Assembly: GCA_963702095.1 (NCBI GenBank)
Contig: OY969706.1
Location: forward strand, 1,600,001-1,664,000
Direction: 5' to 3'
Origin: Candidatus Bathyarchaeota archaeon
GTDB lineage: Archaea; Thermoproteota; Bathyarchaeia; Bathyarchaeales; Bathycorpusculaceae
DNA: 64,000 bases
Shown: positions 42,716-62,847 of the stretch, one piece after another
How the letters are laid out: each line of letters opens with the position of its first letter
How positions within the stretch are numbered: position 1 is the first letter of the stretch
The notes under the pieces: model-generated
Databases searched by the model: none
What the model saw: only the letters and a program-made list of their open reading frames with translations
Told to the model about the DNA's origin: nothing
Translations under genes and position numbers: made by a program

Positions 42716-42849
42716 TTTTGGTTTTTACTCCTTGAAAAGGCAATACACCAATTTGCCCTAAGTAACCTTGTGCGTACCAGAAATTACGCACCTGAAAAGA
42801 CCAGAAAAGAAAAAAATAAAAGGTAAAGTGAAAAGAAAATTGTAGGGGC

Positions 42850-43558: not shown

Positions 43559-45271
43559 GTGTCTGTTGTTCCGAAATATGAATTGGGGTTTCATAAGGGT
43601 TATACTTTCTTGTTGACCCAATTGTTCTTGCAAGTCTGGATATGTGTGCTATTGAAGGAAAACAACCCTCATAAAGCCGTAGTGCCCATTGTAGTTCTGC
43701 TTTTGGTTAGTTCTTTCTTTGTTGTGGAGGTTTCGGGGGTACAGTTGATTGCAACTGACGAATATAATCGTTATGTGCACACTAACTTTGATTCGGATTT
43801 GGGTAACTATACGTTGCTTGAGAAGCCTATTTTTCCAGTTTTAATTGCTAACACAACAATACCGATCGGCGGCAACTGGACCATAACCTGCCCCCTTCAA
43901 ACAGGCCACAAATACCACGTATACTGCTACGGAACATGGGTGAACACTTCTTCAACCGCAAAAACCGACTACGACATCTACGTTTTCAATCCCCAAGGCA
44001 CCCTGGAGAGTTCCCATACCGAAGCCGCGGGGCTTCCTGAACATTTAGGCACAACCTCAAACGACGCATTCTTTACCCCAAAGCAAAACGGAAACTATTC
44101 GTTTGTAGTAAAAAACGATGCAAGGGAAAGCCAGGGTTCACAACAGGCGACGTTTATGATAATTGAGAACTTGGAAACCGACCAGTGGTGCAGCAGCTAT
44201 GTTGAGGGAAAAGCAAGCGACACCTCTCCACATCTCCATACATGTTGGAGCTACGAATTCATCACTAACGAATCCAAAGTTGAATTGTACGTAAAAGTCC
44301 CCTCAACACTGGACATGTATGAAGCCCGCCTATACCTAATGAACACGGCTGAATCACTCAAAATCAACGATGTCCCGTTGCCCTACGAACCTGGTTTGTA
44401 TGGCAATCAATCTGGCGTTGCCGGCGGCTACAACTTTGAAAGTGAAGCATACCGAGGAGTAGCCTACGCCAGCTGCGAATACATGGGGCAGTCGATGTTT
44501 CTAAACTATACCGCTACTGTGACTGGCATAAAGCTCTATCATCTTGTGTTGATTGGAGAGGAAGGCTCTGGAACGGTGGAGTTTATGCTTAAAACCCAAT
44601 TCGGAAACACATCCATAACGCCCGTAGAAACGCCATCACGGATGCTGCCGAATCAACCTGCCAAAATCTCTTATGTCTCAAACAACGCCAGCTTAGCAAC
44701 TGCACAACTAACTTACACAACCGACAGTTGGAACAGCACCAAAGCCATCAACATGGACATAAGCAACCATACCTGCAACGCCACTGTCCCCGGTCAACCC
44801 GCAGGAACCATAGTTCAGTACCGCTTAGACGCCAACGACACATTAAACAATGCATTGTCAGCAGAGGGAAACTACACTGTTAAGAATCAGCCTTACTTGA
44901 ATTTCACAGTTGAAGAAACCATCGTTTTAGGCCAAAACCTAACAATCACCGGAACCCTAACTCACTGCGACAACCAATCGAGTGTAACCGTAAAAGTCTT
45001 CAACGCCAACAACACTGAAAGCCTCTTATGCCCCGTCTTAAGTGACGGATCGTTTACATGCAGTTTCCAACCGTCTTCATCAGGAAATTGGAGCATAGTC
45101 GCCAACTCACCTGAAACCCAAACATCATGGAGTTGCGGAAGCTCACAGCTTCTGGTAACAGTTAAGGAACCGCCGCTCTACGTAAAATACTCACTCTACA
45201 TAATCATTGGGTTGGTTGCGGCTTCAGCGGCTGGCGGAGTGGTTTGGTTCCTGAAGTTCCGAGGAAAATAA
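43559..45271 (+). CDS. Large secreted, C-terminally anchored surface protein with Ig-like regions
   Basis: Hydrophobic N-region, many N-x-S/T sequons, internal D.Y/EA repeat, C-terminal TM; start uncertain. Confidence 0.75.
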   Translation: MSVVPKYELGFHKGYTFLLTQLFLQVWICVLLKENNPHKAVVPIVVLLLVSSFFVVEVSGVQLIATDEYNRYVHTNFDSDLGNYTLLEKPIFPVLIANTTIPIGGNWTITCPLQTGHKYHVYCYGTWVNTSSTAKTDYDIYVFNPQGTLESSHTEAAGLPEHLGTTSNDAFFTPKQNGNYSFVVKNDARESQGSQQATFMIIENLETDQWCSSYVEGKASDTSPHLHTCWSYEFITNESKVELYVKVPSTLDMYEARLYLMNTAESLKINDVPLPYEPGLYGNQSGVAGGYNFESEAYRGVAYASCEYMGQSMFLNYTATVTGIKLYHLVLIGEEGSGTVEFMLKTQFGNTSITPVETPSRMLPNQPAKISYVSNNASLATAQLTYTTDSWNSTKAINMDISNHTCNATVPGQPAGTIVQYRLDANDTLNNALSAEGNYTVKNQPYLNFTVEETIVLGQNLTITGTLTHCDNQSSVTVKVFNANNTESLLCPVLSDGSFTCSFQPSSSGNWSIVANSPETQTSWSCGSSQLLVTVKEPPLYVKYSLYIIIGLVAASAAGGVVWFLKFRGK

Positions 45272-45274
45272 GCG

Positions 45275-45460
45275 TTGTGTTCTCTCTTTATGTGGGTGTG
45301 GCAGTTTACGGGGCACCACAAGACGGCAGTTGATGGCGGCTGCTTTTTGGGGCTGCAACGTTATTCACCGCCTGTTATGGTGTGAGATATCCGTTTTCTT
45401 CCACACGACATACATGCTTCCATGTTGAAGCCCATTCTTGTGTGTGTGAAACCATGATGG
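45275..45460 (+). repeat. Repeat family A, copy 4
   Basis: gtgttctctcttt.tgtggg.gtggc..ggggcaccacaagacggca.ttga.ggc.gctgctttttggggctgcaa.gttattcacc matches 32371-32465. Confidence 0.9.
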
Positions 45461-45539
45461 ATTTGTCTTGTGGGCGTGCCAAGGGTTTTTTTAACAAAGA
45501 CTTTAAGGGTAACCAACAATGATAGGTTAGGGAGTAAGT

Positions 45540-45836
45540 ATGTCTGATAACGCAGCAATCCTTGAGAGGGTTTCAAAGGTTCTAGGTGTTCCACAAAAAG
45601 AACTTATCAAAAAAGGCTTAGAGGAACTGCTCCAATCCCAATTAAGAACCTGCTCCGCAGAAATCAACGAAATAAAAACAAAATACAACATCAAAACTGC
45701 AACCGAATTAGCAAAAAAGATTGAAAAAGGCACCGTTGAGGAGCACCCAGCTTGGGAAGACTTGATAGTTCTCGAAAACCTCGAAGAGCGCATTAGAAAC
45801 ATTCGAAAAGAGCTAATGGCGCTAAAGCATGAGTAA
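45540..45836 (+). CDS. Putative antitoxin
   Basis: 98-aa helical protein overlapping the downstream toxin-like gene by 8 nt; TTTAAG TATA-like box near 45502. Confidence 0.65.
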   Translation: MSDNAAILERVSKVLGVPQKELIKKGLEELLQSQLRTCSAEINEIKTKYNIKTATELAKKIEKGTVEEHPAWEDLIVLENLEERIRNIRKELMALKHE

Positions 45837-46224
45837 CCAGCCAAGTCTCGAGGAAATATTCCAGCGCATCGCTGAGGCTGTTATTGCAGACTTTTCCGAC
45901 ATAGCGGTTGATGCCCAGCTTAGATACACCCCTTCGGGCGCTATAGAGCGTCTAAGAATATTTTTAGTGGATGACACCTTTTTGGACATCTGGTTATCAC
46001 TTTCCGGAAAATACTCCTATCATTGGGAGCAACGGCACGTAAGAGGATGCCTTCACAGGCATGATAACGCACCCCACAAAAAATGGAAAGAAGTCAAAAC
46101 CTTTCCAAAGCACTTCCATGACGGCAACGAAGACAACGTAAAAGAAAGCACAATACCCGATGAACCTACAGCGGCTGCCAGTTATTTCCTTTCTTTTGTG
46201 AGAGACTCAATAAGAAAAAGATAA
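45829..46224 (+). CDS. DUF6516/TumE-like putative toxin
   Basis: KYSYHW......HRHDNAPH..W..VKTFPKHFH.G signature. Confidence 0.75.
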   Translation: MSNQPSLEEIFQRIAEAVIADFSDIAVDAQLRYTPSGAIERLRIFLVDDTFLDIWLSLSGKYSYHWEQRHVRGCLHRHDNAPHKKWKEVKTFPKHFHDGNEDNVKESTIPDEPTAAASYFLSFVRDSIRKR

Positions 46225-46231
46225 TGCCCCT

Positions 46232-46410
46232 TCCTTGTTTTCCTCTTTGTGTGGTGTGGTGGTTTTAGGATTGCAACAAGACAGCAATTGGATGCAGTTG
46301 CGTTTTTTTAACGCAGTGGTTTTTGGCGTCTGTTTCGGTGTGGGATAAGCGTTTTTCGCCATACGCTATACATGCTTGCATATTGAAGCGGTCACGGTGT
46401 AGATGTAGCA
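46232..46410 (+). repeat. Repeat family A, copy 5 (diverged)
   Basis: ctctttgtgtgg, acaagacagcaattg, gtctgtttcggtgtgg.a.aagcgtttttc.cca.acgc shared with copies 1 and 4. Confidence 0.8.
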
Positions 46411-46445
46411 ATTACGTTCATTTTGAAAATGAATTGACTCAAAGA

Positions 46446-46775
46446 CTATGGAAGGTGCTTGTTTGTTTCTTCGATTTTGGCCTGTGCTTTGCGGTACCGC
46501 GCAACCAAGTCTTTGCCAAACGGGGTTACCTCTGAGGAACCGCCGCCTTTTGCTCCGCCACGTACACGGGTAACCAGCGATTGCCCCAAGCGTCCCTCTG
46601 CCAATGTTATGCGGTGTAGTGCATATCGGTAGGACATGCCGAGATGTTTTGCTGCTTCAAGGACGGAGTGGTGTTGGCTTATTTCTTCTAGTAGTTTGGC
46701 GAGGCCGTCGCCGAAGATTGCTTCGTTTTTTTCGTTTTCCATCCAGAGTTTGAAGTGGTAACTGAGTGGGGGCAT
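46446..46775 (-). CDS. ModE N-terminal-like winged-helix regulator
   Basis: FG.G...LLE.I....S...AAK.LGMSYR.A...I...E..LG..LV...RGG..GG.S.VT. Confidence 0.88.
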   Translation of the reverse strand: MPPLSYHFKLWMENEKNEAIFGDGLAKLLEEISQHHSVLEAAKHLGMSYRYALHRITLAEGRLGQSLVTRVRGGAKGGGSSEVTPFGKDLVARYRKAQAKIEETNKHLP

Positions 46776-46973
46776 GGTTTATCAGATTTTAGTGGGTGGT
46801 TTGGGCAATTAAGCTTTGCTTTTTGGTTTTTTTGGGTTGGGTGGATGTGTGTTTTTTGATGTTGCGGTTGCTTGATGTAGCCAGCAAGGCTTTTATAGCA
46901 TATATATTGTATATACAATTAATATTATTGCCGAATGTCTTTGTAACGGGAGAACGGAAGGCTAGGAAATACC

Positions 46974-47834
46974 ATGCAAAAACTTGAGCTAAACCAAATC
47001 GTCGATAAAAAACAACTCAACTCCGTAACCAAAAAAATCACGGTATACGCCCCAGATATAGCCGCAAAAGCAAAAGCGGGGCAATTCGTAATCTTCAAAG
47101 TCCACGAAGACAGCGAACGTATACCTCTCACCCTCTCATCATGGGATACTGAAAAAGGCACAATATCCCACATATTCCAAGAAGTCGGCTACTCGACCAA
47201 AGAACTTGGCGCACTCGAAATAGGACAGAAAATCGAAAGCGTTGCAGGTCCCTTGGGAAACGCCAGTGAAATCAGGAAGTTCGGAACCGCCGCCGTCGTC
47301 TGCGGTGGCTTGGGCACAGCAGTCGCTTACCCCGTGGCTAAAGCCCTCAAAGAAGCAGGAAACAAGGTCGTATCTATAATCGGCGCACGAAACGTTGAAC
47401 TCTTCATTTTGGAAGATGAGATGAAAGCGGTCTCTGACGAGGTTTTCTTTGCCTCTGACGATGGCACCAAAGGGCAGAAGGGCTTTGTCAGTGACGTACT
47501 AAAGACGCTTATCTTGAAAAACTACAATTTCGACATAGTTTTCGCCATTGGACCCCCCATAATGATGAGTGTCATTGCCGACCTCACCCGGCCCTACGGA
47601 ATTAAAACCATAGCCAGCCTCAACCCTATCATGGTGGACGGAATGGGCATGTGCGGTGCCTGCCGAGTCTCCGTTGGCGAAAAAATCCAGTTTGCCTGCG
47701 TAGACGGACCCGAATTTGATGCCCACCAAGTTAACTTCAAAGAGCTTATGCAGCGGCTCAAGTGCTACTGCACTGAGGAGAAGCACCCCGAATTATCTCA
47801 CCAAGGAGGAACATGCAAATGTCACAGCCAATAA
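46974..47834 (+). CDS. nfnA: NfnA / sulfide dehydrogenase SudB (flavin/[2Fe-2S] subunit)
   Basis: GQFVI, ERIPLT, GPLG, IGPPIMM, MVDGMGMCGACRV, CVDGPEFD. Confidence 0.92.
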   Translation: MQKLELNQIVDKKQLNSVTKKITVYAPDIAAKAKAGQFVIFKVHEDSERIPLTLSSWDTEKGTISHIFQEVGYSTKELGALEIGQKIESVAGPLGNASEIRKFGTAAVVCGGLGTAVAYPVAKALKEAGNKVVSIIGARNVELFILEDEMKAVSDEVFFASDDGTKGQKGFVSDVLKTLILKNYNFDIVFAIGPPIMMSVIADLTRPYGIKTIASLNPIMVDGMGMCGACRVSVGEKIQFACVDGPEFDAHQVNFKELMQRLKCYCTEEKHPELSHQGGTCKCHSQ

Positions 47835-49240
47835 AAGAAAACCCCAAACACCAAAGCCGCTTAAAAGCAGTGGAAGTCCCCAAACAGGAACCCGCTTCCC
47901 GAGCCAAAAACTTCCAAGAAGTCGTGTTAGGCTACACTGAAGATCAAGCCTTAGCTGAAGCATCCAGATGCCTAAACTGCAAAGAGCCCAAATGTGTTGA
48001 AGGCTGCCCCGTCGGAGTAGAAATCCCAAAATTCATTGCGCTACTCAAACAAAAAGACTACGAAGCAGCCATCACAAAAATCAAAGAGAAAAACAGCCTA
48101 CCCGCCATATGCGGCAGAGTCTGCCCACAAGAAGAGCAATGCCAAAAAATGTGCATCCTAGGCAAGAAGGGCGACGCCATCTCCATCGGACGCCTTGAAC
48201 GCTTCGTCGCGGACATGGAGCAGGCAAAAGGCATAAAACCCCAAGAGGTTCCTGCTTGGAACGGCAAAAAAATCGCGGTTGTCGGCGCAGGCCCCGCAGG
48301 TTTAACCGTTGCCGCGGACCTTGCAAAGATGGGTTATAAAGTCACCATTTATGAGGCGTTGCATAGAGGCGGCGGCGTTTTAGTGTATGGCATCCCAGAG
48401 TTCCGTCTGCCCAAGCGGATTGTGCAAGCTGAAATCGACTACATTAAAGCACTGGGTGTTGAGTTGCAACCTGACTATTTAATCGGCAGAATCTTTACCG
48501 TCGAGGAACTCTTCAAAAAAGGCTTCAGTGCAATCTTCATCGGCACCGGTGCAGGACTCCCCAAATTCCTAAACGTCCCAGGCGAAAACCTAAACGGCAT
48601 CTACAGCGCCAACGAATTCCTCATCCGCGTCAACCTCATGAAAGCCTTCCGGTTCCCCCAGAACAAAACCCCCATCCGCGTAGGCAAAAAAGTAGCGGTA
48701 ATCGGCGGCGGCAACGTCGCACTTGACTCCGCACGCTGCGCCCTGCGGTTGGGAGCTGAGGAAGTCTCCATAATCTACCGGCGAACAAGACACGAGATGC
48801 CTGCGCGTCAAGAGGAAATCGAAAATGCTGAGGAAGAAGGAATAATCTTTAGGTGGCTGACTGCGCCGCTAAAGTTCTTTGGCGACGATCTGGGCAACGT
48901 TAAAGCCATGGAGACCCTTGAAATGCGGCTCTGCGACGAAGACGACACTGGCAGACACCAAGTTGCCCCCATAGAGGATTCACAATCAACCATGGATGTG
49001 GACACGGTTATTGTGGCTATCGGACGCACCCCCAACCCCATCATACAGGGCACAACCCCCGGCCTTAAAACCCAGCGGGGCGGCATCATAGCCAGCGACG
49101 AAGACTTCAAAACCAGCATCGACGGCGTCTACGTCGGCGGCGACATCGCAACAGGCGAAGCCACAGTCATAAGTGCCATGGGCACAGCCAAAACCGCTGC
49201 AAAAAGCATCCACGAGTACCTCTCTAAACCCAAAAAATAA
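47819..49240 (+). CDS. nfnB: NfnB / SudA (GltD-like) subunit
   Basis: EASRCLNC..P.C..GCP, CGRVCPQE.QC, GAGPAGL, YGIPEFRLP, GGGNVA.D, GGD...G.ATV. Confidence 0.92.
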   Translation: MSQPIKENPKHQSRLKAVEVPKQEPASRAKNFQEVVLGYTEDQALAEASRCLNCKEPKCVEGCPVGVEIPKFIALLKQKDYEAAITKIKEKNSLPAICGRVCPQEEQCQKMCILGKKGDAISIGRLERFVADMEQAKGIKPQEVPAWNGKKIAVVGAGPAGLTVAADLAKMGYKVTIYEALHRGGGVLVYGIPEFRLPKRIVQAEIDYIKALGVELQPDYLIGRIFTVEELFKKGFSAIFIGTGAGLPKFLNVPGENLNGIYSANEFLIRVNLMKAFRFPQNKTPIRVGKKVAVIGGGNVALDSARCALRLGAEEVSIIYRRTRHEMPARQEEIENAEEEGIIFRWLTAPLKFFGDDLGNVKAMETLEMRLCDEDDTGRHQVAPIEDSQSTMDVDTVIVAIGRTPNPIIQGTTPGLKTQRGGIIASDEDFKTSIDGVYVGGDIATGEATVISAMGTAKTAAKSIHEYLSKPKK

Positions 49241-49273
49241 GACGCAGACGACACGTGCGTTTGCCCATATTTT

Positions 49274-50320
49274 TTACTCTTTTGTTTTTGCTTCCTCAAG
49301 AGTGTCCGATGCAGGCTTGAATGCTCGATTCACCGCTGTCTCTGCTATGTTGAAGGTGCAGTGGGCAATCCGCTTAATATTATCGCGGATAGAGCATATG
49401 CCGCAGACTAGTTCAGCGTTTTTCTGGGGTCCAGTGAAGGATTTGGATGTTATGTCAACGTCGAGTTTTTCCATTCTTTGGTGGTACTTCATTATGTTGA
49501 CTGCGGCGGTGACGTCTTTGGAGAAGAAGGCTTCCACCGCTTTTACATAGAGGTCGGTTACTTCTGCGCCTGCACTAACCATGAGTGCTACAACGTCGTC
49601 GGGTATGGTTTGTTTGGCGCCGTGCAGCATGATTATGTGGCGGTTGATGTCAGCAGCGTAGTCTGAGGCGTGTTCAACGTGGGTGACGAGCATCTGGTGG
49701 TCCATGCAGTCGATGGGGTCAACATGCAATTCGTTTGCTAAATGCGGGTCTTGACCAGCGGTTCGTAGAATCCTCACAATGAAAAAGGCAAAGTGGTCCA
49801 CGTCGTCATCGAGGGAAAACGAGGATTTCGCTAATGCCACATCATTATTTTTTAAGGCATCAAAGGCACCTTCGCACATGGACCGCGAAATGAGGTGCAT
49901 ACGCTGCACTGCCTGCTGAATCGAAGCTTTGGATTCATCGGAGATGCTTTGTATGTAGACGCATTTGGCATCTGCCTCCATGACTCGCATGTAGAGGCGT
50001 CCAGCCATGTTGCGGATGGCTTTGGTCTGGGGGACGGTGAAGACGTTTTCGGAGGTAAGCATGATACCTGTGTAGCCGTTTAGGAAGGCGCCTAACACTT
50101 TTTGTGTGATTAGGACTTCTTCTTCGTTTTGGCTTATGTGGAGGGTGATTTCTTTGTGTTCGGATTTTTTGAGTGTACTGGGGTAAATGACTAGTGAGCG
50201 GTCGCGTTGGATGTTGAAGGAGACTGTTTCGCCTTTTTTTAGGTCGTTTAGCTGCATCCACTCTTTTGGTAAGGAAATTACTAGAGAAGATTTTCCCAAG
50301 GACATGATTTTGCGTTCCAA
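49274..50320 (-). CDS. AbrB-PhoU phosphate-uptake-type regulator
   Basis: RKIMSLGKSSLVISLPKEW AbrB domain followed by two PhoU repeats (DDDVD; RIA..NIAE). Confidence 0.88.
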   Translation of the reverse strand: MERKIMSLGKSSLVISLPKEWMQLNDLKKGETVSFNIQRDRSLVIYPSTLKKSEHKEITLHISQNEEEVLITQKVLGAFLNGYTGIMLTSENVFTVPQTKAIRNMAGRLYMRVMEADAKCVYIQSISDESKASIQQAVQRMHLISRSMCEGAFDALKNNDVALAKSSFSLDDDVDHFAFFIVRILRTAGQDPHLANELHVDPIDCMDHQMLVTHVEHASDYAADINRHIIMLHGAKQTIPDDVVALMVSAGAEVTDLYVKAVEAFFSKDVTAAVNIMKYHQRMEKLDVDITSKSFTGPQKNAELVCGICSIRDNIKRIAHCTFNIAETAVNRAFKPASDTLEEAKTKE

Positions 50321-50441
50321 ATTAATGCCTCATAACCCGGGTATTAATTGTTTAATACAGTGGACACGGCATATATACATTGTTATGGAAATACTGCTAC
50401 AAACATAACTAACAAAAAGAGGAGAAAGAAAGGCTTTCTGG

Positions 50442-51476
50442 TTAGGCTTCAGTTACTTTCGCGTCTTTCTGCACGTGAACCACGCCCTCGCCCGCAGCAA
50501 CATAACCCACCTCGCAATAGTGCACCCCACCCTTATCCAGTTCACTCTGCAAATCGTCAGCATCCTCCTTCGCAACCGCCATCAAAACGCCGCCGGCAGT
50601 CTCCTTCGATTCACCCGTAAACAGTGGATACCCAAAAATGTCCGTTAACACAGGGGTGCCCCTGATGACATAGAGGTTGTCTATGACTATGTCAACTTTG
50701 CCCAGCATCGCCATGTTCGCAGCATGCCCTTTAAGCCCAAAACCGGTGACGTCAGTGGCTGCGTGAACAGACACGTTTTGCATCGCTTCCGCCACGGGCT
50801 TATTCGATGTGGTCATTCCAGTGATTGCTTGATTGACTGCGGTTTCAACTAAATCCTCTGGAACATCAGCAAGCAACTCTTTACCCTCCCCGTCCTTACG
50901 CAGCCGATAAGCAGCCATCGCAGGCGCAATCCCCAACGGTTTAGTCAAGAAAAGGCGGTCACCAACTTGGGCGCCTTTGGTGTAAACGATTTTTTCTGGA
51001 TCGCCGATGCCCGTGGCTGCGCCACCGATGATGGGCCAGGGGTTGCGGATGGTGTGTCCGCCCAATACGGGGGTGTCCATTTCACGGCAGAAATCGCCTA
51101 AGCCCTTAAGCATGCCGACGGCAAGGTCATTGGGCATGTTTTCGGGAAACGCCATAATCGTTAGTACGGCGGCAATTTTGGTTACGCCCAAAGTGTAGAT
51201 GTCGCTTGTGACGTTGCTGCCTGCGATGCGTCCTTGGATTTCGGGTTCATCAACCATAGGCGTGAAGAAGTCCAGCGTGTTTAGGATTGCGATGCCGTCG
51301 GCGATTTTGACGACGCTGCTGTTTTCCCATGGTCCAGCCAGCACTTCTTCGCCGAAGCCGCCTGTTAAGCCTGCTTGGTCGAGAAGTTCACCGAGTTGGT
51401 ACTGGGGCAGTTTACAGCTGCATCCGTGTACGGGAACAGCTTTGGTTAGTCGGTAACTCAACTTTTTTCTCTCCAT
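50442..51476 (-). CDS. selD: Selenophosphate synthetase (Cys-type, archaeal-like)
   Basis: HGCSCKLP (codon TGC), DFFTP.VD, SDIY, GGHTI.NPWP..GG, LTKPLG, TDVTGFGL.GH, ETAGG.L. Confidence 0.92.
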   Translation of the reverse strand: MERKKLSYRLTKAVPVHGCSCKLPQYQLGELLDQAGLTGGFGEEVLAGPWENSSVVKIADGIAILNTLDFFTPMVDEPEIQGRIAGSNVTSDIYTLGVTKIAAVLTIMAFPENMPNDLAVGMLKGLGDFCREMDTPVLGGHTIRNPWPIIGGAATGIGDPEKIVYTKGAQVGDRLFLTKPLGIAPAMAAYRLRKDGEGKELLADVPEDLVETAVNQAITGMTTSNKPVAEAMQNVSVHAATDVTGFGLKGHAANMAMLGKVDIVIDNLYVIRGTPVLTDIFGYPLFTGESKETAGGVLMAVAKEDADDLQSELDKGGVHYCEVGYVAAGEGVVHVQKDAKVTEA

Positions 51477-51531
51477 TTATTATTTTTCTGTACTTGATAA
51501 TAAAACATCCCCAAAAATGGGGGAGGGGTGG

Positions 51532-52824
51532 TTACGCTTGGTTTTTGCCTGCGATTATTTCAAGGAAAGCTTCTATGCGGGTTTTTATCTGCGCTGCATC
51601 GCCCATGCCGTAATCGGTTTCGATGGTAAGCATCGGCAAATTCTGCTCTTTAAGCGCCCGGTTGACTTTGACGGCTTCCACGTTGTAGTCGTGGCAGTTC
51701 TGCAGTGTGTAGTAGATGACGCCGTCGGCTTTGAATTGCCCGGCAAGGTCAGTGACGTTTTGGATGCGTCGGTCGTTGGGTGTAAAGCATGCACAGGGGA
51801 TTTTGCTGTACTTCTCCACAAGTGCCCACAGAAGATCGCGTATGCTGTCGCCTTTGGGTTCAACGAAGTCATTGAAGAGACGGGTACCAACGCAGCTTTC
51901 CTCCACAACCACCGTCGCCCCCAAAGATTGGGCGATGCTGTGTACTTTCCAGTTGGGAATTGCCATGGGGCAACCTGAAACCATCAGCCTGGGCGCATCC
52001 GCGGGTGAAACACCTACACCGTTTTTAACGCGTTCGTCGAGTTCATCGCAGAGATCGTTGACTTTGGCGGTAAAGCGCACGGGGTCATCGTTGAAGCTGA
52101 TTTGGTTGATAAGCAACGCGTCTAGACCGCTGATCGGTGAGGGGTTTTTGGCACGGAGGTTGTTTAGGCGTTGGAGGGCTTTGCGTTTGTTGTTTATGAG
52201 TTCGATGGCGACTTTGAGTTTCTCTGCGGTGATGGTGTTGCCTGTAAGTTCCTCTATTTTGGCTTTGAAAGCTTCAACTTCTTTGTACCAGAATTCTTTG
52301 CCTGCTTGGGTGTCGGGTTTGTGGGGAATCTCTATTACATAAGTGGGTATGAGCTCGTTGAGGAGTTCGTAAACTTTCTTTTTTCCGTCACAGGTGGTTT
52401 CGCCCACGACTAAGTCGCTGACTTGGAAGTATGGGCAGGTTTTGCCGAGTTTGAAGCCATAAAAGGATTTGATGAGGGGACAGAGGTTACGGGGCAACAC
52501 CGCTTCGGCGTCTGGAACAGAAAAGTCTGCGCCGCCGCAGAGGCCAACCATAGAGGCGTCGGCTGCGTAGGCGAGTTCTTCTGGGGCGTAGACACAGAAG
52601 GCGCCTAAGACTTTTTTGCCTTTGGCGCGTTGGTCGTTGAGTTCTTTGATACGGAGGCCATGGATTTCTGAGACGACGAAGTCGAAGTAATCCATTTTTT
52701 TGGGGCGGTTTTTCTGGGAGAGGTAAATGTCGGTGTAAAATTGTCCGAGGGCGTTTAGGAGGATATTGTGTTTTTCAACATCTATTCCTATGCTTTTCCA
52801 AAGTTCCATGTATTGTTCTGACAT
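51532..52824 (-). CDS. Double-cubane-cluster protein (DCCP; 2-hydroxyacyl-CoA dehydratase D-like family)
   Basis: FCVY.PEE, LCGG, LPRNLCPLIKS, CPYFQ, GETTCDGKKK, EESCVG, CACFTPN, QNCH.Y, TRIEAFLE. Confidence 0.88.
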   Translation of the reverse strand: MSEQYMELWKSIGIDVEKHNILLNALGQFYTDIYLSQKNRPKKMDYFDFVVSEIHGLRIKELNDQRAKGKKVLGAFCVYAPEELAYAADASMVGLCGGADFSVPDAEAVLPRNLCPLIKSFYGFKLGKTCPYFQVSDLVVGETTCDGKKKVYELLNELIPTYVIEIPHKPDTQAGKEFWYKEVEAFKAKIEELTGNTITAEKLKVAIELINNKRKALQRLNNLRAKNPSPISGLDALLINQISFNDDPVRFTAKVNDLCDELDERVKNGVGVSPADAPRLMVSGCPMAIPNWKVHSIAQSLGATVVVEESCVGTRLFNDFVEPKGDSIRDLLWALVEKYSKIPCACFTPNDRRIQNVTDLAGQFKADGVIYYTLQNCHDYNVEAVKVNRALKEQNLPMLTIETDYGMGDAAQIKTRIEAFLEIIAGKNQA

Positions 52825-52905
52825 AGGGATCACTGATTGTTATGTAAGGAAAAAGCAGACATTATTAAGATTTATCATAAATAAAATTAAAAGAGTTGAT
52901 GGATG

Positions 52906-53139
52906 TTAATGTTTTTTAATCAGCATCTTAAACTCGGCACCAGAGTGTTGCGTCTCAACAATCTCGTGACCATTATTCGTCACCCAATGAGAAATGTTAC
53001 CAAGCTCCAACTCGCCCTCGCCGGTAACCTCCAAAAGCCCGCCGACCGCCAACTCTGCCAACTTGCGCTTGGTCAAAGCCACTGGCATGGGGCACATTTT
53101 GCCTTTAACATCAATTTTCTCGACGCTCACAGTGCTCAC
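52906..53139 (-). CDS. TusA/SirA sulfur-carrier protein
   Basis: IDVKGKMCPMP (CPxP motif). Confidence 0.9.
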   Translation of the reverse strand: MSTVSVEKIDVKGKMCPMPVALTKRKLAELAVGGLLEVTGEGELELGNISHWVTNNGHEIVETQHSGAEFKMLIKKH

Positions 53140-53490
53140 CTAGAAGGTTATGACTTTGTCGCTTGTAGTGGTCCACTCAACCAGATCATGGATGGTTGCG
53201 AGTCTGACGCCGTTGATGAGTTCATCTTGCTTTAAGCCGCGGGCTTCTGCGCAGACACCGCAAGCTTTGACTTCAACCCCTCCTTTAACGAGGTCGTCTA
53301 GCATTTGACCGAAGTTTGTTAAGCCTTGGGCTGGGTTTTGTCCCTTCTTGGCGATGTAGACGCCGTTTTCGAAGAGCCAAATTTTTACTTTGTGGCCTTC
53401 CAAGTCGGCGGTCCATGCGAAGCGTAATGCTGAGAGGGCGCGTTCTTTTGCGATTGGGGCTTCGTAGATTATTACTGTGTAAGTTACCAT
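53140..53490 (-). CDS. DsrE/YchN-like sulfur relay protein
   Basis: IWLFENGVY.AKKGQ, VKACGVCAEARG, L.EW...SDKVITF. Confidence 0.9.
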   Translation of the reverse strand: MVTYTVIIYEAPIAKERALSALRFAWTADLEGHKVKIWLFENGVYIAKKGQNPAQGLTNFGQMLDDLVKGGVEVKACGVCAEARGLKQDELINGVRLATIHDLVEWTTTSDKVITF

Positions 53491-53519
53491 GGTCACTCAC
53501 TTTTTTGATATTGCTTATT

Positions 53520-53532
53520 TATCTTTCCGATA
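53520..53532. promoter_or_regulatory. Candidate LysR box (T-N11-A with dyad)
   Basis: TATC-TTTCC-GATA between the divergent dsrE and lysR starts. Confidence 0.4.
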
Positions 53533-53610
53533 TAAAGGCGTTATCTTTATTCAGAAATGGAATAGACATATAAATGATTTGCCCCAAAGATAGGGGTGGG
53601 CAGACAGCGC

Positions 53611-54540
53611 ATGGAAACTATCCGATTCGATTACCTAAACACCTTCCTAACTGTAGCACGAACTAAAAGTTTCTCAATCGCGGCAAAAGAACTCAAAACC
53701 AGCCAAGGCACCGTAAGCCACCACATAGCCGCCTTGGAACAGTACTTTGACGCGGAACTTTTCAAACGCTCCGCCGGCGGCGTAGAAGTCACCGAGGCAG
53801 GCGCAACCCTAAAAGAAGCCGCCGAACAGATCATCCAGCAAGCCAACAACGCCAAAGCCAAAATCTCCTCAGCCAAACAAACCCTAAGCGGCACCATACG
53901 AATAGCAGCCAGCACCATCCCTGAAGAACACATCCTACCCGGTTTAATCGCGGAGTTCCAGAAAAATCACCCTGAAATAAAATTCAAGATAAAAGCCCAA
54001 GACAGCCTAACCAGCCTCGGCAGCTTACAAGCAAACGACGTGGATTTCGCTGCAGTGGGCACTATTTTGGGGTTTGAGGAAAAGTTTGATTTCCTTCCAG
54101 TCGGCGAGGAAAAACTGGTGCTTATTGTTCCATGCAACCATGTTTTAGCTGAGAAAAAAGCTGTAACGCTCTCTGAAGCCCTAAAGTACCCCTTCATCAG
54201 ACGTGAAGAAACCTCGGGAACAAGGCTTGAAATCGAGAAACTCTTAGCAAACAACAAAATTCCACACTCAAACCTTAAGGTCGTGTATGAGTTGGGCAGC
54301 ACAGAGTCCGTGGTTACCGCCGTTTCTGAGGGGCGTGGCGTGAGCATTCTTTCTTCGATTGCCGCCGCCAAAGCGAAGGCTGCAGGATTGGTTGTGGTGG
54401 TTGACATTGCCGAAGCTAAAGACACACGCAAGCTCTATGTGGTGAGGAGTAAAAGGGCGTTGCTTAAGCCCTCAGAAGTGTTCTGGGATTTCTGCAGGAA
54501 CTACCGATTTAAGAACCAAGCAATAGCTTGTCCCAAGTAA
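53611..54540 (+). CDS. LysR-family regulator (selenium-metabolism-associated type)
   Basis: SFS.AAKEL..SQ.TVS.HI..LE; I.ASTIP.E.ILP; FI.REE.SGTR; LGSTE.V..AV. Confidence 0.9.
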   Translation: METIRFDYLNTFLTVARTKSFSIAAKELKTSQGTVSHHIAALEQYFDAELFKRSAGGVEVTEAGATLKEAAEQIIQQANNAKAKISSAKQTLSGTIRIAASTIPEEHILPGLIAEFQKNHPEIKFKIKAQDSLTSLGSLQANDVDFAAVGTILGFEEKFDFLPVGEEKLVLIVPCNHVLAEKKAVTLSEALKYPFIRREETSGTRLEIEKLLANNKIPHSNLKVVYELGSTESVVTAVSEGRGVSILSSIAAAKAKAAGLVVVVDIAEAKDTRKLYVVRSKRALLKPSEVFWDFCRNYRFKNQAIACPK

Positions 54541-54548
54541 GCGGATTC

Positions 54549-54884
54549 CTATTCTTCTTCCTCGTCTTCCTCTAGGTTTACCCAGATTTTGCCATCTTTA
54601 ACTTTGAACGGGTAAAACACGAGTTGGTAAGCGGGGCTGTTCTCGTAGTAGCCAGTTTCTAAATCAAAGCGCCAGTCATGACAGGGACACACAATCAGGT
54701 CACCGTCGAGGTTTCCGCCTGAAAAACGGCAGCCCATATGGGGACAGCGGTCGTCGAAGACGTAGATTTTGTCGTTGTGCCTAACAAAAAGCACCGGTAT
54801 GCCTTCATGTCTTACAAGTTTCATTTTGCCTTCTTCGAGTGTTTTTTCTTCAATTAAGGGCACGTATCCTTCGTCTTCTGACAT
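54549..54884 (-). CDS. Rieske [2Fe-2S] ferredoxin
   Basis: CPH...CPCHDWRFDLETG. Confidence 0.9.
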   Translation of the reverse strand: MSEDEGYVPLIEEKTLEEGKMKLVRHEGIPVLFVRHNDKIYVFDDRCPHMGCRFSGGNLDGDLIVCPCHDWRFDLETGYYENSPAYQLVFYPFKVKDGKIWVNLEEDEEEE

Positions 54885-54994
54885 AGAGTTAACCAGCGAT
54901 AGAATGTTTCTTGTGTAGGATATTTAAAAGTGATGCGTCGGATAAGGGGTTGTTGCTCTCCACTCTAACCCCCAATTTAACAGCAGACCAAAAA

Positions 54995-55075
54995 TTGTTC
55001 CGCTTGCGGTCTGCTCCATAACCAGCCCGCAAACTAAACCAAACACCGCCCCAGAAACCGCAGCACCACAGACGG
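54995..55075. repeat. Repeat family B, copy 4 (partial, opposite orientation)
   Basis: tgttccgcttgcggtctgctccataaccagcccgcaa vs reverse complement of copy 1 tgttctgcttgtggtttgctccacaaccaccctgcaa. Confidence 0.7.
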
Positions 55076-55142
55076 GGAAACAAACAATTCCGTGATACCC
55101 AACTAAACAGACTTAATTGATAGTTCCCTCTACAGTCTAGCG

Positions 55143-55982
55143 ATGTTTACAGTCAAAACCTTGACAAAGAAAGACTTTGCTTTTGCAGTCGATTTAGCGA
55201 ACACTATGGATTGGAAAATGGCAGTGGAAGATTTCGAGTTTATGACGTCGCTGGAACCCAAAGGCTGTTTTCTTTTAGTTGACGGGACACAAAGAGTAGG
55301 AATCGCGACCTGTATTAGTTATGGCAAACTCGGCTGGTTCGGAAACCTTGTCGTGCAGAAAGATTACCGTGGTCAAGGCGCCGGAAGCCTGCTTGTGCAG
55401 CATGCAATTTCTTATCTGCAAACGCAAGGAGTGGAGTCCATCGGGCTCTACTGTGAACCGCCGCTTACCAGATTCTACAGCAATCTGGGCTTTAGAGCAG
55501 ATGAAGAATTCGTCTACTTTTACGGGGAAAATGACGGAGACATTAAATCGGCTGTTTTGCCAAAAGTCGAGTGGAAACATTTAGCGCAAATTATTGGCTT
55601 CGACCATCAGTTTGTGGGTGGGGATAGACGGAGACTGCTTGAATCAATCATCCTCGAAAAAGGCAACTTAAGCTCCTACGTATCCGAAGGAAATGAAGTC
55701 GTTGGCTACATTGCTGCTACTGTATACGAAAGATCTGTGTGGATTGGCCCCCTAATCTGTGCACCCCAAAGATACGACGCGGCTCTACCGCTCGTCGAGT
55801 CGGTTCTGTCAAATACAGGGGGCAAAACCGTTTTCGCCGCGTTCCCCAAAAAAGACGCTCCCCTATGCAATGTGCTGTCGGAGATTAAGCGTGGGGGCGG
55901 TTTTGAGCTTTGCAGAATGTTCTTTGGGCAGTCACCTTCGAAAAATTGTATATACATGGCTGAATCATTAGAACGAGGATAA
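55143..55982 (+). CDS. GNAT N-acetyltransferase (tandem GNAT fold)
   Basis: V..DYRGQGAGS.L; FY..LGF; IGPL. Confidence 0.88.
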   Translation: MFTVKTLTKKDFAFAVDLANTMDWKMAVEDFEFMTSLEPKGCFLLVDGTQRVGIATCISYGKLGWFGNLVVQKDYRGQGAGSLLVQHAISYLQTQGVESIGLYCEPPLTRFYSNLGFRADEEFVYFYGENDGDIKSAVLPKVEWKHLAQIIGFDHQFVGGDRRRLLESIILEKGNLSSYVSEGNEVVGYIAATVYERSVWIGPLICAPQRYDAALPLVESVLSNTGGKTVFAAFPKKDAPLCNVLSEIKRGGGFELCRMFFGQSPSKNCIYMAESLERG

Positions 55983-55984
55983 GT

Positions 55985-57347
55985 ATGGAAGATTTCTGCA
56001 AGGTTTTGCTTGAGGATTTTTTGAAGTCCTCTTTTAACACGGTTAAGGTGCTCGTAGAAGGCGCCAAAGCCGCGAAGGAACAGAAAACCAACCGCAAAGT
56101 AACCCTCTGCCGCTGTGTAAACGGCAAAAAAACGGTAGTGACCTTTTTTGATGAACGGTTCTACCTCAGGGGCTCTGTTGAGTACACTAATCCACAAGTG
56201 ACCGTGGAGGAGCTGCAGGGCATCATCGCCACGCGGCTGCTTGAAGCCTCTGCAAACCATTACCTCGAAGGCGGCATCCATGAACCCAACGCCGACGATG
56301 TAGCGGCTATTGCCGAGGCGCTCAAAAAGCCTCCGGAAGGCTTCATCCTGCCCTATTTGTTAAACACCGACGACGTAGAACCAGACCGTTACTCGATGAA
56401 TCCGCTCAAACAATCCATAATAGACAGCGGACAAAGCGCGTTTCCCGCCCTCAACGTCAAAACTGACCAATTAAAAATTGATGAAGCCTACGCCAAAAAA
56501 TACGGGGGCAGCTTAATCTCCAGAAAAGAAACCGAACTAATCACCACCACCCTAAAAGAGAGCACCGGCTCCTACATTGACTTCGTGGATTCTATAAAGT
56601 ACAGCCAAATCGAGGAAATGTCAGAGGTCTTCGGCATGGATTTGTCGCTTTATACGCTTCGGCTGCCTCTTACCATGTTGCAGTCTGAGGGCAAAGACGG
56701 CATCCTCCACTACATCATCAGCCAAAGCCACCAAGACTCCGCTTCCATCGAAGCGGCCGTACACCTGCATGGGCAGAAGCATGACCAAACGCACCACGCT
56801 TCTAACAGTGCCACACTCCAAAAAGGGCTTTGGTTCTAAGCGGGCGGCAAGAGGCAAACTGCACTTCGAAGAAGACAAGTTCCTCAACGCCAAAGTCAAA
56901 TACCAAACCACCGCCCTCTACCCCAACGACGTAGACGAAAAAGACGTTGCTATGGCCGTATGCGACGACGAATTCACCGTCTCAGGCGACAAACTTGCCG
57001 ATTACAGCTACGCTGAGACGCCTTCTTCGCCACAGTTTTTCCTCTACTCTATGGGGTCGCCTGAAGACGCAGCGATCTGGCACGGCATAGGTGCTTTTAG
57101 CTCCTCCCAACTACTGCATAGTTACACTTCTGCCCGTATCGCCTGCAAAGAGGGAAGGTTGATTAAAGATTTAAACAGTAAATACAATGTACGCCTCGGT
57201 GTTCCCTTACAGTTTAACCTTGCAGTTGAGGGCATGTGGAGTCACCCCATCCACCACAACATAGACGCTAGCATAGGCAGCGTCGAAGATATGGCGGATT
57301 TGGCTCGTCGAGGCATGAAACTCGAGTACCTTTCAACCTTCAAATAG
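55985..57347 (+). CDS. Hypothetical protein of about 450 aa (frameshift near 56760)
   Basis: Two overlapping ORFs join by removing one C (AAYTCMGRSMTK); no family recognised. Confidence 0.7.
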
Positions 57348-57362
57348 GAGCAGAGTGGCAAT

Positions 57363-57890
57363 TTGACCGCGAAAGAGCAGACAATGTTTCGGATTCTGCG
57401 TTTGTTTAGAAAACTCCCCTTCAACCTGCTTGCAGTGGGAAACCAAAAAGTTATCTTTTCTGAGTATTTCAAGCATTTTGAGAGGGTTGAAGCGGTCAAA
57501 GGCATCTTTGGAGAAAAAACAAAGGAAGTTCTAAGCCACCTCACAGTTGAACTCAGCTGGGTAATGGGGTACATGTACGTGGATGACTCTGATGGGCATC
57601 TTGTAATAAGCAAAGGGTACCTCAACAGCGGCGACAAAACCGACATCTACTTGGATTTGATCCATGAACTCTGTCACGTTAAACAGTTTATGGAGGGCAA
57701 AGAACTCTTTGACCCCCGATATGAATACGTTGACCGCCCAACCGAAATCGAAGCCTACCGCTACTGCATCAAAGAAGCCCGCAGACTTGGGCTCAGTGAA
57801 GAACGTATATGCTGCTACCTAAGAACCGAATGGATGAACGACGAAGATTTTAAGCGACTGGCAAAGTATGTTGACGTCTCATGTTGCTAA
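57363..57890 (+). CDS. Putative zinc metallopeptidase-like protein (HEXXH)
   Basis: LIHELCHVKQ ... PTEIEAY. Confidence 0.65.
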   Translation: MTAKEQTMFRILRLFRKLPFNLLAVGNQKVIFSEYFKHFERVEAVKGIFGEKTKEVLSHLTVELSWVMGYMYVDDSDGHLVISKGYLNSGDKTDIYLDLIHELCHVKQFMEGKELFDPRYEYVDRPTEIEAYRYCIKEARRLGLSEERICCYLRTEWMNDEDFKRLAKYVDVSCC

Positions 57891-59069
57891 CGCTTCACGG
57901 TAAACCCTAAGCATCCCTTGGGTGCAAATGTCCCAGGTGAATTTTTCTTGGATGAATTTTCGGCCCAATGAACCCATTTTTATGCGCGTTGGTTTGTCGT
58001 CTAAGAGCTTCAGGATTGCCTCCGCTAGTTCCGCAGCGTTACCCCGCTGCACCAGCAAACCCGTTTCTCCATTGCGGACGGTTTCGTTGACGCCTCCGAT
58101 GTCAAAAGCAACCACGGGTTTAGCAGATGCCTGTGCCTCCAACAGCACAATGCCCTGTCCCTCCTGAATAGAAGGCAAAACAAACACGTCTGCACAGTTG
58201 TAAACCGATGGGAGTGCTTCTTCGTCTATGTGGTTTAGGAACACAAAGTTGCCTGAGAGGTTCGCTTGAGCTAAAGAGTTTTGCAGTGGCTCTTGTAGCG
58301 GGCCGTCGCCGACAAGCAGAAACCTGGCGTCAGCATGTGTTTTCACGATTTTTTTTGCTGCTTCCACCAGAAAAGGCAACCCTTTACGCGGGATTAAGCT
58401 GCCCACAAAAAGCACACATGGCTCACCGCCTAAACTGAACTGCCGCTTAGCCGCCGCCACATCCTCTTGGGGCTTGAACTTTTCTGTATCTACCCCATTG
58501 GGAACAATCCGCACCTTCTCAGCGTCAACAGTATAGTACTTCCGCATTTTCTGCAGGGAATAATTGCTGATTGTCACAATCAAAGTGGCGTCTTTAGCTG
58601 TCTGCCCCTCTAACTTGGCAAGGTGACCCATGAAAACGTTGGCAACCCTATCGCGCAGTGAATTTGCCCCACCGATTTTTGCTTGCTCAAACTCGTCGGC
58701 CAATACGCCGTGGATGGTGTGGATAAAGGGTTTTTTGATGTTCAGTTGCCGTAGTTTTTTTGGAAGTCCATAACCGCTTACTGCGTGAGTCTCGAAAACA
58801 TCGGCGTTTATGTTGGCTGCGTTTTTGGTTAGGCTGCGGTTGAAGCTCCAGTTGTCAAGTGGAAAAACCCTGTCGGTGGAGCTGAGGGGAACCAGAGTTG
58901 CGCCAGTCATTTTGGCGGGGTTTTTGAAGCCTCTTTTGGTTCCGCAGTAAATTGTGATGTCGGCTTCGTTTTGTAGGCGCTTAGCGGTCTCGGTGATGCG
59001 TCGTTCTACGCCGCCGTAGTAGAGGTGGGGGGGTTGAGTGTTTATGACTGCTAAGCGGAACTTTACCAT
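57879..59069 (-). CDS. Glycosyltransferase family 4
   Basis: GGVERR, IVPNGVD, FVG.L..RKG, FVLPS..EGQGIVLLEAQA. Confidence 0.92.
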   Translation of the reverse strand: MVKFRLAVINTQPPHLYYGGVERRITETAKRLQNEADITIYCGTKRGFKNPAKMTGATLVPLSSTDRVFPLDNWSFNRSLTKNAANINADVFETHAVSGYGLPKKLRQLNIKKPFIHTIHGVLADEFEQAKIGGANSLRDRVANVFMGHLAKLEGQTAKDATLIVTISNYSLQKMRKYYTVDAEKVRIVPNGVDTEKFKPQEDVAAAKRQFSLGGEPCVLFVGSLIPRKGLPFLVEAAKKIVKTHADARFLLVGDGPLQEPLQNSLAQANLSGNFVFLNHIDEEALPSVYNCADVFVLPSIQEGQGIVLLEAQASAKPVVAFDIGGVNETVRNGETGLLVQRGNAAELAEAILKLLDDKPTRIKMGSLGRKFIQEKFTWDICTQGMLRVYREALAT

Positions 59070-59192
59070 CAGATAGACCTGTGAAGTTAGTTAACGGTTT
59101 AGTGGGCATAAAAGTTTTGTTTTTCATTCAACCCTTAGCTTCCAGATAGCCTCAAGTGATCTTGGACTTAAAAGCCCACATACGCGGCTTTT

Positions 59193-59531
59193 TCAGCCAA
59201 CCGAAACTAAGTAGTTGACATGTGAATTCACGGTATCGATGAGCTGCTGCCGCCGTAGGTTTCCCTCGGAATCACTAATGCGGTCAATCGCCCATGCGAG
59301 TTCCTCATCACCAAAAACATCCCTTACCCACTTCTGAAAATCCCGACGTTTAATGTGAAAATCGATTGAGTCTTCATCTATCGTTTTTAGCTTCTCAATG
59401 AAGTCACATAGGCTCAAGGCGGATATTCCCGTGTAGTAGCCGCCGTCGGTGCAGAAGTGGAAGCCACTCTCAAACGGTACATCCCTGAGGCTTTGCCGGT
59501 TTCTAGAATTCTTAACAGAAATGTTTGCCAT
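59193..59531 (-). CDS. DUF5752-like small protein
   Basis: F.F.T..G.YTG..A.SL.DF.EKL..I...SI.FH..R.DF.KW..DV.GD.ELA. Confidence 0.75.
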   Translation of the reverse strand: MANISVKNSRNRQSLRDVPFESGFHFCTDGGYYTGISALSLCDFIEKLKTIDEDSIDFHIKRRDFQKWVRDVFGDEELAWAIDRISDSEGNLRRQQLIDTVNSHVNYLVSVG

Positions 59532-59635
59532 AAAAAATGTTCCCTTTAAAGAATGGGGGAGTACATTTTTATTGATTTGTGATGGAAAGATTGCAGTCAC
59601 ATATGTAAAACTACGTCGATGTGAAGCAAAAACGG

Positions 59636-59809
59636 CTATTCGTCGCCGTAGCCGTGTTCTAGTCTGCCATGTGTTTTTTTGTAGACAAATTCATGCTGCT
59701 CTTTAGTGGCTCCAAACGCGGCGGTGTGTTTTTGGAGGTCTGCCTGCGTAAAAAAGATGCAGCTGCAGTAGGGGCATTTGTAGTAGTGGTTGCCATTTGT
59801 TTGGGTCAT
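59636..59809 (-). CDS. Small C2H2-like zinc-finger protein (57 aa, below ORF-track cutoff)
   Basis: MTQTNGNHYYKCPYCSCIFFTQADLQKH...; ATG about 10 nt after the ileS stop. Confidence 0.7.
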   Translation of the reverse strand: MTQTNGNHYYKCPYCSCIFFTQADLQKHTAAFGATKEQHEFVYKKTHGRLEHGYGDE

Positions 59810-59819
59810 GTTTTTTCGC

Positions 59820-62800: not shown

Positions 62801-62847
62801 GGATTGTAGTTGGTCGGAAGGGCACTTTCAGTGTTTTGGGCAGTCAA
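59820..62847 (-). CDS. ileS: Isoleucyl-tRNA synthetase (frameshift near 60660)
   Basis: HIGH, GWDCQGLPVE, WTT.P.T, TGVVHLSPG.G.DD, WCISRER.WGTP, EGIDQTRGW, KMSKS; anticodon domain in second ORF. Confidence 0.95.

Follow-up and report, generated by a model that had tools for sequence, protein, structure and literature searches.

Genes for the regulator LysR_Se, YedF, YedE, DUF3343, an HGD-type subunit and an activase form selenium neighborhoods in bacteria, as described by Lin et al. (2015, PMC5322559). In the archaeon Methanococcus maripaludis, selenium depletion induces genes annotated as HgdB (57-fold), TusD (24-fold), TusA (22-fold) and YedE (39- and 42-fold) (PMC11097638, Table S3), and the same source gives a 609-fold rise of the cysteine-form fwdB together with induction of DUF3343. 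Selenocysteine (Sec) is described in some Bathyarchaeota (PMC9499178), co-occurrence of DCCP (double-cubane cluster protein) with selenophosphate synthetase (SelD) has already been published (Haft and Gwadz, 10.1101/2022.07.06.499078), and a figure legend of PMC10418091 places DCCP near selenium genes. Here we describe a dsrE-tusA-DCCP-selD operon, divergent from a lysR gene, in a Candidatus Bathyarchaeota archaeon (assembly GCA_963702095.1, contig OY969706.1, positions 1,600,001 to 1,664,000; this whole stretch of 64,000 nucleotides is referred to as the window). We hypothesize, with a probability of roughly 55%, that the operon collects selenium, makes selenophosphate and likely serves to place selenium, in a form other than Sec, at the tungsten or molybdenum (W/Mo) site of a variant formylmethanofuran dehydrogenase.

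The source genome (G000) is one contig of 2.94 Mb that is 90% complete, and it was compared with a set of 401 Bathyarchaeia genomes, 41 of which belong to its genus (G-numbers are genome labels). As a sequence-only reading of the window had described, four co-oriented genes encoding a DsrE with a CxxC motif, a TusA with a CPxP motif, DCCP and SelD lie divergent from lysR (Table 1); they are separated by 0, 81 and 55 bp, and each of the five products passes the cut-off of, or matches, its named family. SelD scores 328.5 on PRK14105 (cut-off 291) and 228 on TIGR00476 (cut-off 125), has the Cys/Sec-x-x-Lys loop as G-C19-S-C-K22, retains D69, N88, D92 and D242 as the equivalents of Asp68, Asn87, Asp91 and Asp227, and carries Glu51-Asn52 where E. 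coli has Asp50-Asp51. DCCP reaches 494 bits on NF040772 (cut-off 350), matches PDB entries 6ENO and 7YYL at E 1e-148 with residues 6-424 aligning to 6ENO, and possesses both the N-terminal extension and all seven motif cysteines (77, 96, 115, 145, 311, 344 and 377), which are kept in 20/20 homologues. The TusA motif is C16-P-M-P, with Cys16 in 27/28 homologues, and the DsrE motif is C79-G-V-C82, with both cysteines in 27/27. The two proteins resemble the N-terminal and C-terminal halves, respectively, of bacterial YedF, in which SirA and DsrE domains share one chain; here they are separate genes that score 34 and 22 bits on TIGR03527 (cut-off 110), though the CPxP and CGxC motifs are present. 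LysR scores 256.4 on the selenium-specific model NF040786, LysR_Sec_metab (cut-off 250). The gene selD itself occurs in 38/401 genomes, 29 of them within the genus, and the neighborhood holds up in relatives as the sequence-only reading had supposed, since 26 of these 38 loci have dsrE-tusA directly upstream of selD, with the exact layout of five genes recurring at 12. The cassette combines genes with a known selenium association in an arrangement that is new for archaea.

What does this SelD serve? A client was already missing from the window, and the search of the 90% complete single-contig genome gave zero matches to SepSecS, YqeB, YqeC, SelU and the xanthine-oxidase family, sub-threshold matches only to tRNA-Sec (six of the seven being ordinary tRNAs) and, for the PSTK-SelB fusion of G103, matches to general GTPases only. 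The genome therefore shows neither the Sec trait nor, being without YqeB, YqeC and a xanthine-oxidase-family enzyme, that of the Se-dependent molybdenum hydroxylases. No senA or senB neighbors selD in the window, and the remaining genome was not searched for them. SelU was found neither in the source genome nor in any of 37 relatives, with that of M. jannaschii detected as a positive control, and YqeB was found in one of the 37 (G064, of another family). Among the 29 selD-bearing genomes of the genus, SepSecS occurs in four and YqeB and SelU in none, leaving 25 with an orphan SelD that lacks all three. The gene is under purifying selection, with a median ratio of nonsynonymous to synonymous substitution rates (dN/dS) of 0.075, calculated from 83 unsaturated pairs out of the 276 formed by 24 orphan copies. 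Its closest relatives are selenoproteins, TGA(Sec)-coded in a sister genus (G217, G229 and G395) and 69% identical, and because these include TGA-coded forms, this SelD is by sequence relationship a true SelD that has gone from Sec to Cys. SepSecS accompanies a TGA-coded SelD in G217, G229, G395, G103, G110 and G037, in four of which a PSTK-SelB fusion adjoins selD; four further Bathyarchaeia genomes combine SepSecS with an intact Cys-form SelD, and other selenoproteins should therefore exist there. An orphan SelD has earlier pointed to additional selenium traits, and here most members of a genus retain one. Two other uses were considered and rejected: thiophosphate for SepCysS, as the genome has no PF05889 match, and aldehyde:ferredoxin oxidoreductase, which in 38 genomes does not divide according to selD.

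The suggestion of the sequence-only reading that has gained most support is its aside that the system might supply a Se-dependent Mo/W enzyme, and the support comes from co-variation and a shared operator. The subunits FwdB and FwdD of formylmethanofuran dehydrogenase and the chaperone FdhD fall into two sequence types that track selD and not phylogeny. Within two genera, FwdD scores separate according to selD status. In a held-out test, FdhD scores across the 401 genomes are bimodal, with 34 at 313 bits or more and the others at 289 or less; within the family, high scores are seen in 32/32 genomes with intact selD versus 2/67 others with a match, and these two (G294 and G334) are assemblies of more than 200 contigs in which DCCP or dsrE-tusA lies at a contig end. 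At the position of the E. coli GCGVCG sequence, the selD-type FdhD loop reads I[I/V]PL[I/L]K and the others mostly S-[A/V]-C-G, with G365 conforming exactly to neither. The loop cysteine at the site of E. coli C121/C124, the persulfide relay by which FdhD sulfurtransferases are recognized, is absent in 18/18 selD-type proteins and present in 8/8 others. In the selD-type proteins the loop has acquired a Lys and the conserved His an adjacent Asp, and this His-Asp pair is found in 1/150 distant representatives, which is of their own clade.

No protein of the genome other than FwdB matches PF00384; FwdB scores 547 against 328 on TIGR03129 and has the Cys-His metal ligand, and FdhD scores 189 against 141 on TIGR00129. 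The selD-type FwdB reads DN[C/T/V]-C-S-[V/I]-C-HGP, the others mostly DNTAVVC-HGP, such that the third residue before the metal ligand is a cysteine (-3 Cys) in 31/31 family genomes with intact selD (one selD genome yielding no FwdB) versus 1/33 without, and in 0/4 aligned FwdB/FmdB of solved structure. A Sec-coded FwdB in relatives was rejected, as the ligand codons or residues that were read specify Cys throughout, Sec-capable relatives included. Columns that fully separate the two types number 39/522 in FwdB, 12/136 in FwdD, 30/261 in FdhD, 4/269 in FwdC and 0/566 in FwdA; FwdA and unlinked markers interleave without sorting by selD. Independent pairs on a marker tree agree with the association in nine cases and oppose it in none, with one tie (G334; p 0.004). 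The tree was built with FastTree from a paralogous DCCP, two ATPases, a ferredoxin and a membrane protein, five of ten intended markers having been dropped as non-syntenic, and rows below 70% length were removed from the gene trees (7 FwdB, 1 FwdA). Individual genomes follow the same rule: G232, with a frameshifted selD, has ordinary-type FwdB and FdhD; G320 retains only lysR and is of ordinary type, whereas its sister G151, of selD type, has the complete cassette; and the selD-bearing genomes of other families in which Sec or YqeB explains SelD (G110, G037 and G064) have ordinary types where readable. Taken as genomics, the link between SelD and formylmethanofuran dehydrogenase is strong. An AlphaFold model of the selD-type FwdB had a mean predicted local distance difference test score of 46, too low to use.

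One caveat is physical linkage, since selD and fwd/fdhD lie within about 25 kb of each other in 15 genomes, and joint transfer can therefore inflate the co-variation. An explanation built upon this linkage is that two old haplotypes, made up of the selD cassette and a block of fwd and Mo-cofactor genes, have been swapped together, and that SelD is a relic that only feeds the LysR signal or disposes of selenide while the dehydrogenase is an ordinary sulfido enzyme. Patchy retention of Sec machinery in close relatives (11/47) and the proposal of selenophosphate as the HrsM signal would fit. We consider this unlikely, however: fwdA does not track selD despite its position between fwdB and fdhD; types still match in 6 genomes in which 112-797 kb of one contig separate selD from fwdD; the differences sit on the metal-ligand loop and the FdhD relay loop; and all five genes have a dN/dS of about 0.08-0.12.

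A different alternative retains the co-variation and exchanges the element, such that a Cys-form SelD makes thiophosphate, or DsrE and TusA carry persulfide, and the Cys-less FdhD installs an ordinary sulfido ligand. TusA and DsrE belong to sulfur-carrier families, an Asp51-to-Asn change marks the lineage-specific SelD, and Crenarchaeota have been proposed to contain SelD-like sulfur enzymes (PMC4210487). Nevertheless, this sulfur version is improbable when selD-type FdhD and FwdB also occur where a TGA-coded SelD is the sole SelD available for Sec synthesis (G217, G229 and G395). The SelD studied here scores 32.7 on NF038049, the model of sulfur-type SelD-like proteins, against a cut-off of 250 and so falls outside that group, the LysR passes a selenium cut-off, and genes of the aminotransferase-V (cysteine desulfurase) family are present, so that sulfur supply is not lacking.

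Evidence of a second kind comes from the promoter. The stretch that separates the TATA box from the start of dsrE contains an element with the consensus TTA-N7-TAATA-N5-TATYA, and 23/27 dsrE upstream regions match it at 14 or more of 18 positions, the pattern having been derived from the same sequences; the three poorest matches (11/18) come from genomes in which LysR_Se was not found. The T-N11-A dyad highlighted by the sequence-only reading survives only in part: a GATA-N9-TATC dyad at 53507-53523 overlaps the conserved element, but the bare T-N11-A pattern was rejected as evidence, being near chance (14 observed vs 10.5 in shuffles, with a 4-bp dyad in 18% of shuffles). A matrix trained only on the dsrE promoters of 22 other genomes was scored on the 2647 upstream regions of the source genome, where it ranks a stand-alone second fwdD first with a score of 16.1 (99th percentile 6.8); the operon's own operator is degenerate and ranks ninth, with 9.7. 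Stand-alone fwdD copies of G308, G326 and G368 score 17.4-19.9 and that of G312 scores 13.5 at a different offset, versus 6.0 or less for 37 main-operon fwdD copies, and ten DCCP genes of relatives have an operator site of their own with a score above 8. The matrix hits examined were fwdD and, in relatives, the sites that precede DCCP and yedE. This pattern suggests selenium-responsive repression by LysR through the operator, which likely acts on the operon when selenium is plentiful. The cassette unites in a single operon the genes that respond to selenium depletion in M. maripaludis. By the logic of the HrsM regulon, the main FwdB should depend on selenium because the second fwdDB shares the operator, yet it contains no UGA codon. 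Post-translational delivery of selenium from selenophosphate to the W/Mo center, by an FdhD that has ceased to relay persulfide, would therefore be the simplest joint reading.

Where does DCCP fit into this scheme? The sequence-only reading had put it at the core, as the protein that would reduce carrier-bound per(selen)sulfide to feed SelD, and its co-occurrence with selD stands: a seven-Cys DCCP (above 470 bits) is found in 21 genomes, of which 20 have selD, adjoining it in 17. The central role does not stand, as the protein is missing from 13 selD-bearing genomes of the genus, and 11 of these are orphans (11/25), among them the 97% complete single contig of G368. The dedicated ATP-dependent DCCP reductase (DCCP-R) occurs in only 4/21 seven-Cys-DCCP genomes, all four Sec-capable. 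The related claim that no activator is at hand was right for the window and needs amending for the genome, which holds two activator-type ATPases; these lie 137 kb away beside a second double-cubane paralogue, which has six Cys. As candidates for a cognate DCCP-R the genome offers only this 35-45% identical pair, and a dedicated reductase gene was not found. Since 11/25 orphan-SelD genomes do without DCCP and the reductase is so rare, DCCP is an accessory, and the core of the cassette is dsrE-tusA-selD under LysR. The six-Cys paralogue with its two ATPases is present in 40/41 genomes of the genus regardless of selD, including all 12 without it, and was rejected as a selenium client. Haft and Gwadz (10.1101/2022.07.06.499078) raise the formal possibility of a selenium-bridged double cubane, in which case SelD and the carriers would have the seven-Cys DCCP as their client. 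That DCCP is conserved without a dedicated reductase in 17/21 genomes, that 955/970 high-scoring DCCPs lie in SelD genomes according to the same authors, and that the six-Cys paralogue is independent of selD are consistent with such a role, as is the co-occurrence above. It would leave SelD unexplained in the 11 orphan genomes without DCCP, all of which have a selD-type FdhD, and is very unlikely to replace delivery to the dehydrogenase, in addition to which it may be true.

The favored mechanism, in which selenophosphate reaches formylmethanofuran dehydrogenase, can be stated more specifically as a selenido (or Cys-bound selenium) ligand at a W/Mo-bis(pyranopterin guanine dinucleotide) (bis-PGD) center lacking selenocysteine, with the Cys-less FdhD as a selenotransferase fed by SelD and with DsrE, TusA and DCCP as a selenium-scavenging arm; we put this specific form, which would be a further selenium trait dependent on selenophosphate, at even odds. 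In it, DsrE and TusA, as a split YedF, would bind selenium via their cysteines, and DCCP, when present, would help to release selenide from an oxidized or bound form. SelD would then produce selenophosphate, which in place of desulfurase persulfide would supply the terminal chalcogen to bis-PGD held by the FdhD variant, and the extra -3 Cys of FwdB may hold or relay selenium. During selenium shortage, LysR would release both the cassette and the stand-alone second fwdDB, as HrsM does for Se-free isoforms in Methanococcus. No paper linking SelD, FdhD and FwdB was found among the open-access papers searched. In the portions of these sources available to us, 'selenido' is named among possible ligands of bis-MGD (MGD, molybdopterin guanine dinucleotide) with no example given (PMC6239281), a 2026 review calls chalcogen installation by FdhD unproven (PMC13653126), and PMC13188914 mentions neither 'orphan' nor 'cubane'. 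The co-variation names a specific, testable client of SelD. If the mechanism is true, labile selenium extends beyond the xanthine oxidase family to a CO2-reducing enzyme of the dimethyl sulfoxide (DMSO)-reductase family, and nature offers a sulfur/selenium pair of closely related enzymes and chaperones with which to probe the chalcogen ligand and its installation by FdhD. DCCP, with and without its reductase, is placed in a selenium-scavenging regulon.

Several observations, in addition to the linkage described above, weigh against delivery of selenium to the dehydrogenase. Asp51 of E. coli SelD matters for activity, and Asn occupies this position in 32/38 SelD proteins, although the Sec-coding orthologues of G217, G229 and G395 share it. 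In this assembly the main fwdB is frameshifted; unless that is an assembly error, the second copy is the sole intact fwdB. The operator-controlled second fwdDB belongs to the selD-type clade and keeps the -3 Cys, neither of which a simple Se-free backup would need; a further 18 columns distinguish this copy, with an extra Cys92 among them. A selD-type FdhD is found in G334 without the -3 Cys, which is likewise lacking in 4/120 closest FwdB homologues. Cys-less FdhD is common elsewhere (34/135 distant representatives) and R. capsulatus FdsC can do without the corresponding cysteines (PMC6239281), so their loss alone proves nothing. In the M. maripaludis data (PMC11097638), sps itself is not selenium-regulated, and from the part of that source available HgdB could not be confirmed as the seven-Cys type. 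Another co-varying client may exist, as the profiling covered chosen gene families.

Table 1 Coordinates of the operon, related loci and other features. Unprefixed positions refer to the window; C1 refers to the genome contig.
Feature	Position	Strand	Basis or remark
selD, selenophosphate synthetase, Cys form (GCSCK)	50442..51476	-	PRK14105, TIGR00476
DCCP, long seven-Cys type, Met start 52824, accessory member	51532..52824	-	NF040772
tusA, TusA/SirA-type carrier (CPMP)	52906..53139	-	PF01206
dsrE, DsrE-type carrier (CGVC)	53140..53496	-	PF02635
Operator-like element just downstream of TATA box, putative LysR repressor site	53505..53533	-	Conserved consensus
TATA-box-like sequence, putative dsrE-tusA-DCCP-selD promoter	53530..53538	-	Predicted from sequence
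lysR, LysR_Se/HrsM-type regulator, divergent	53611..54540	+	NF040786
Rieske ferredoxin, frequent cassette neighbor (20 genomes)	54549..54884	-	Profile match
Main fwdDBAC-fdhD operon	C1:1762197-1767580		FdhD without loop Cys; fwdB frameshifted near codon 171
Stand-alone second fwdD-fwdB	C1:2565531-2567506		Top operator score; distinct clade (E91-C92, V115, I236), also in G308, G326, G368
Six-Cys double-cubane paralogue locus	C1:1787367-1792411		Two different BzdQ/BcrD-like ATPases, ferredoxin, NapH-like and Cys-rich membrane proteins
Tandem archaellin/pilin-like genes (putative)	42155-43407		Sequence appearance
Two-gene pair, probable toxin-antitoxin module	45540-46224		Second gene resembles Pfam TumE
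modE-like, nfnAB and phoU-like genes	46446-50320		
Two overlapping open reading frames, probable frameshift	55985-57347		No Pfam match
ileS-like gene, split	59820-62847		

The cassette varies in gene content among relatives. Split yedE and DUF3343 genes are added in G217, G229, G326 and G368, and a longer form (loci L045, L072, L074, L071 and L225) has yedE-yedE-tusA-DUF3343 and a YjeF/ThiM-like kinase-fold gene upstream of dsrE. G232 carries a decaying selenium locus, with its frameshifted selD and a split PSTK-SelB beside SepSecS. The ModE-like, NfnAB and Rieske neighbors to which the sequence-only reading drew attention are present, and modE, modABC, mobAB, moeA and fdhD recur beside the cassette in relatives. 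Elsewhere in the window, the two overlapping reading frames correspond to a single one of about 460 amino acids in relatives (family f90), and the ileS-like gene is likewise split. A scan of window positions 44000-60000 against Rfam gave zero families at gathering score, and a scan for sigma-70 promoters and terminators found chance level only.

In comparison with known systems, the bacterial selenium neighborhoods described in PMC5322559 gather the same families around selD, yet they serve Sec, selenouridine or the YqeBC cofactor, whereas no known end-use was found here; their YedF is a fusion, reported there to be absent from archaea, in place of which this locus has separate dsrE and tusA genes. 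The HrsM regulon of Methanococcus (PMC11097638) is similar in having a LysR repressor and in the selenium-depletion induction of TusA, TusD, YedE, HgdB and a second fwdB, and differs in that Methanococcus has a Sec protein as its main FwuB, whereas the ligand of Bathyarchaeia FwdB is always Cys where read. DCCP matches the Carboxydothermus hydrogenoformans DCCP/DCCP-R system (PDB 6ENO and 7YYL; PMC7317905, PMC9351452) over its full length and in the seven-Cys motif, but here it is operonic with an orphan selD, and the cognate reductase is missing in 17/21 genomes. Relative to bis-MGD sulfuration by FdhD/FdsC (PMC6239281, PMC13653126), the TIGR00129 cut-off is passed and the gene ends the fwdDBAC operon, with the differences that the loop Cys is lost, a His-Asp motif is present and occurrence is tied to selD. 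A functional parallel is offered by the Se-dependent molybdenum hydroxylases, in which SelD, YqeB and YqeC accompany a labile selenium cofactor and an orphan SelD supplies non-Sec selenium to a pterin-bound metal (Haft and Self 2008, PMC2276186). YqeB, YqeC and xanthine-oxidase genes were not found in this genome, which places the cassette outside that family; the proposed target is instead a bis-PGD enzyme of the DMSO-reductase family and the proposed maturase a variant of FdhD. By analogy, the cassette would work like the labile-selenium trait of the molybdenum hydroxylases.

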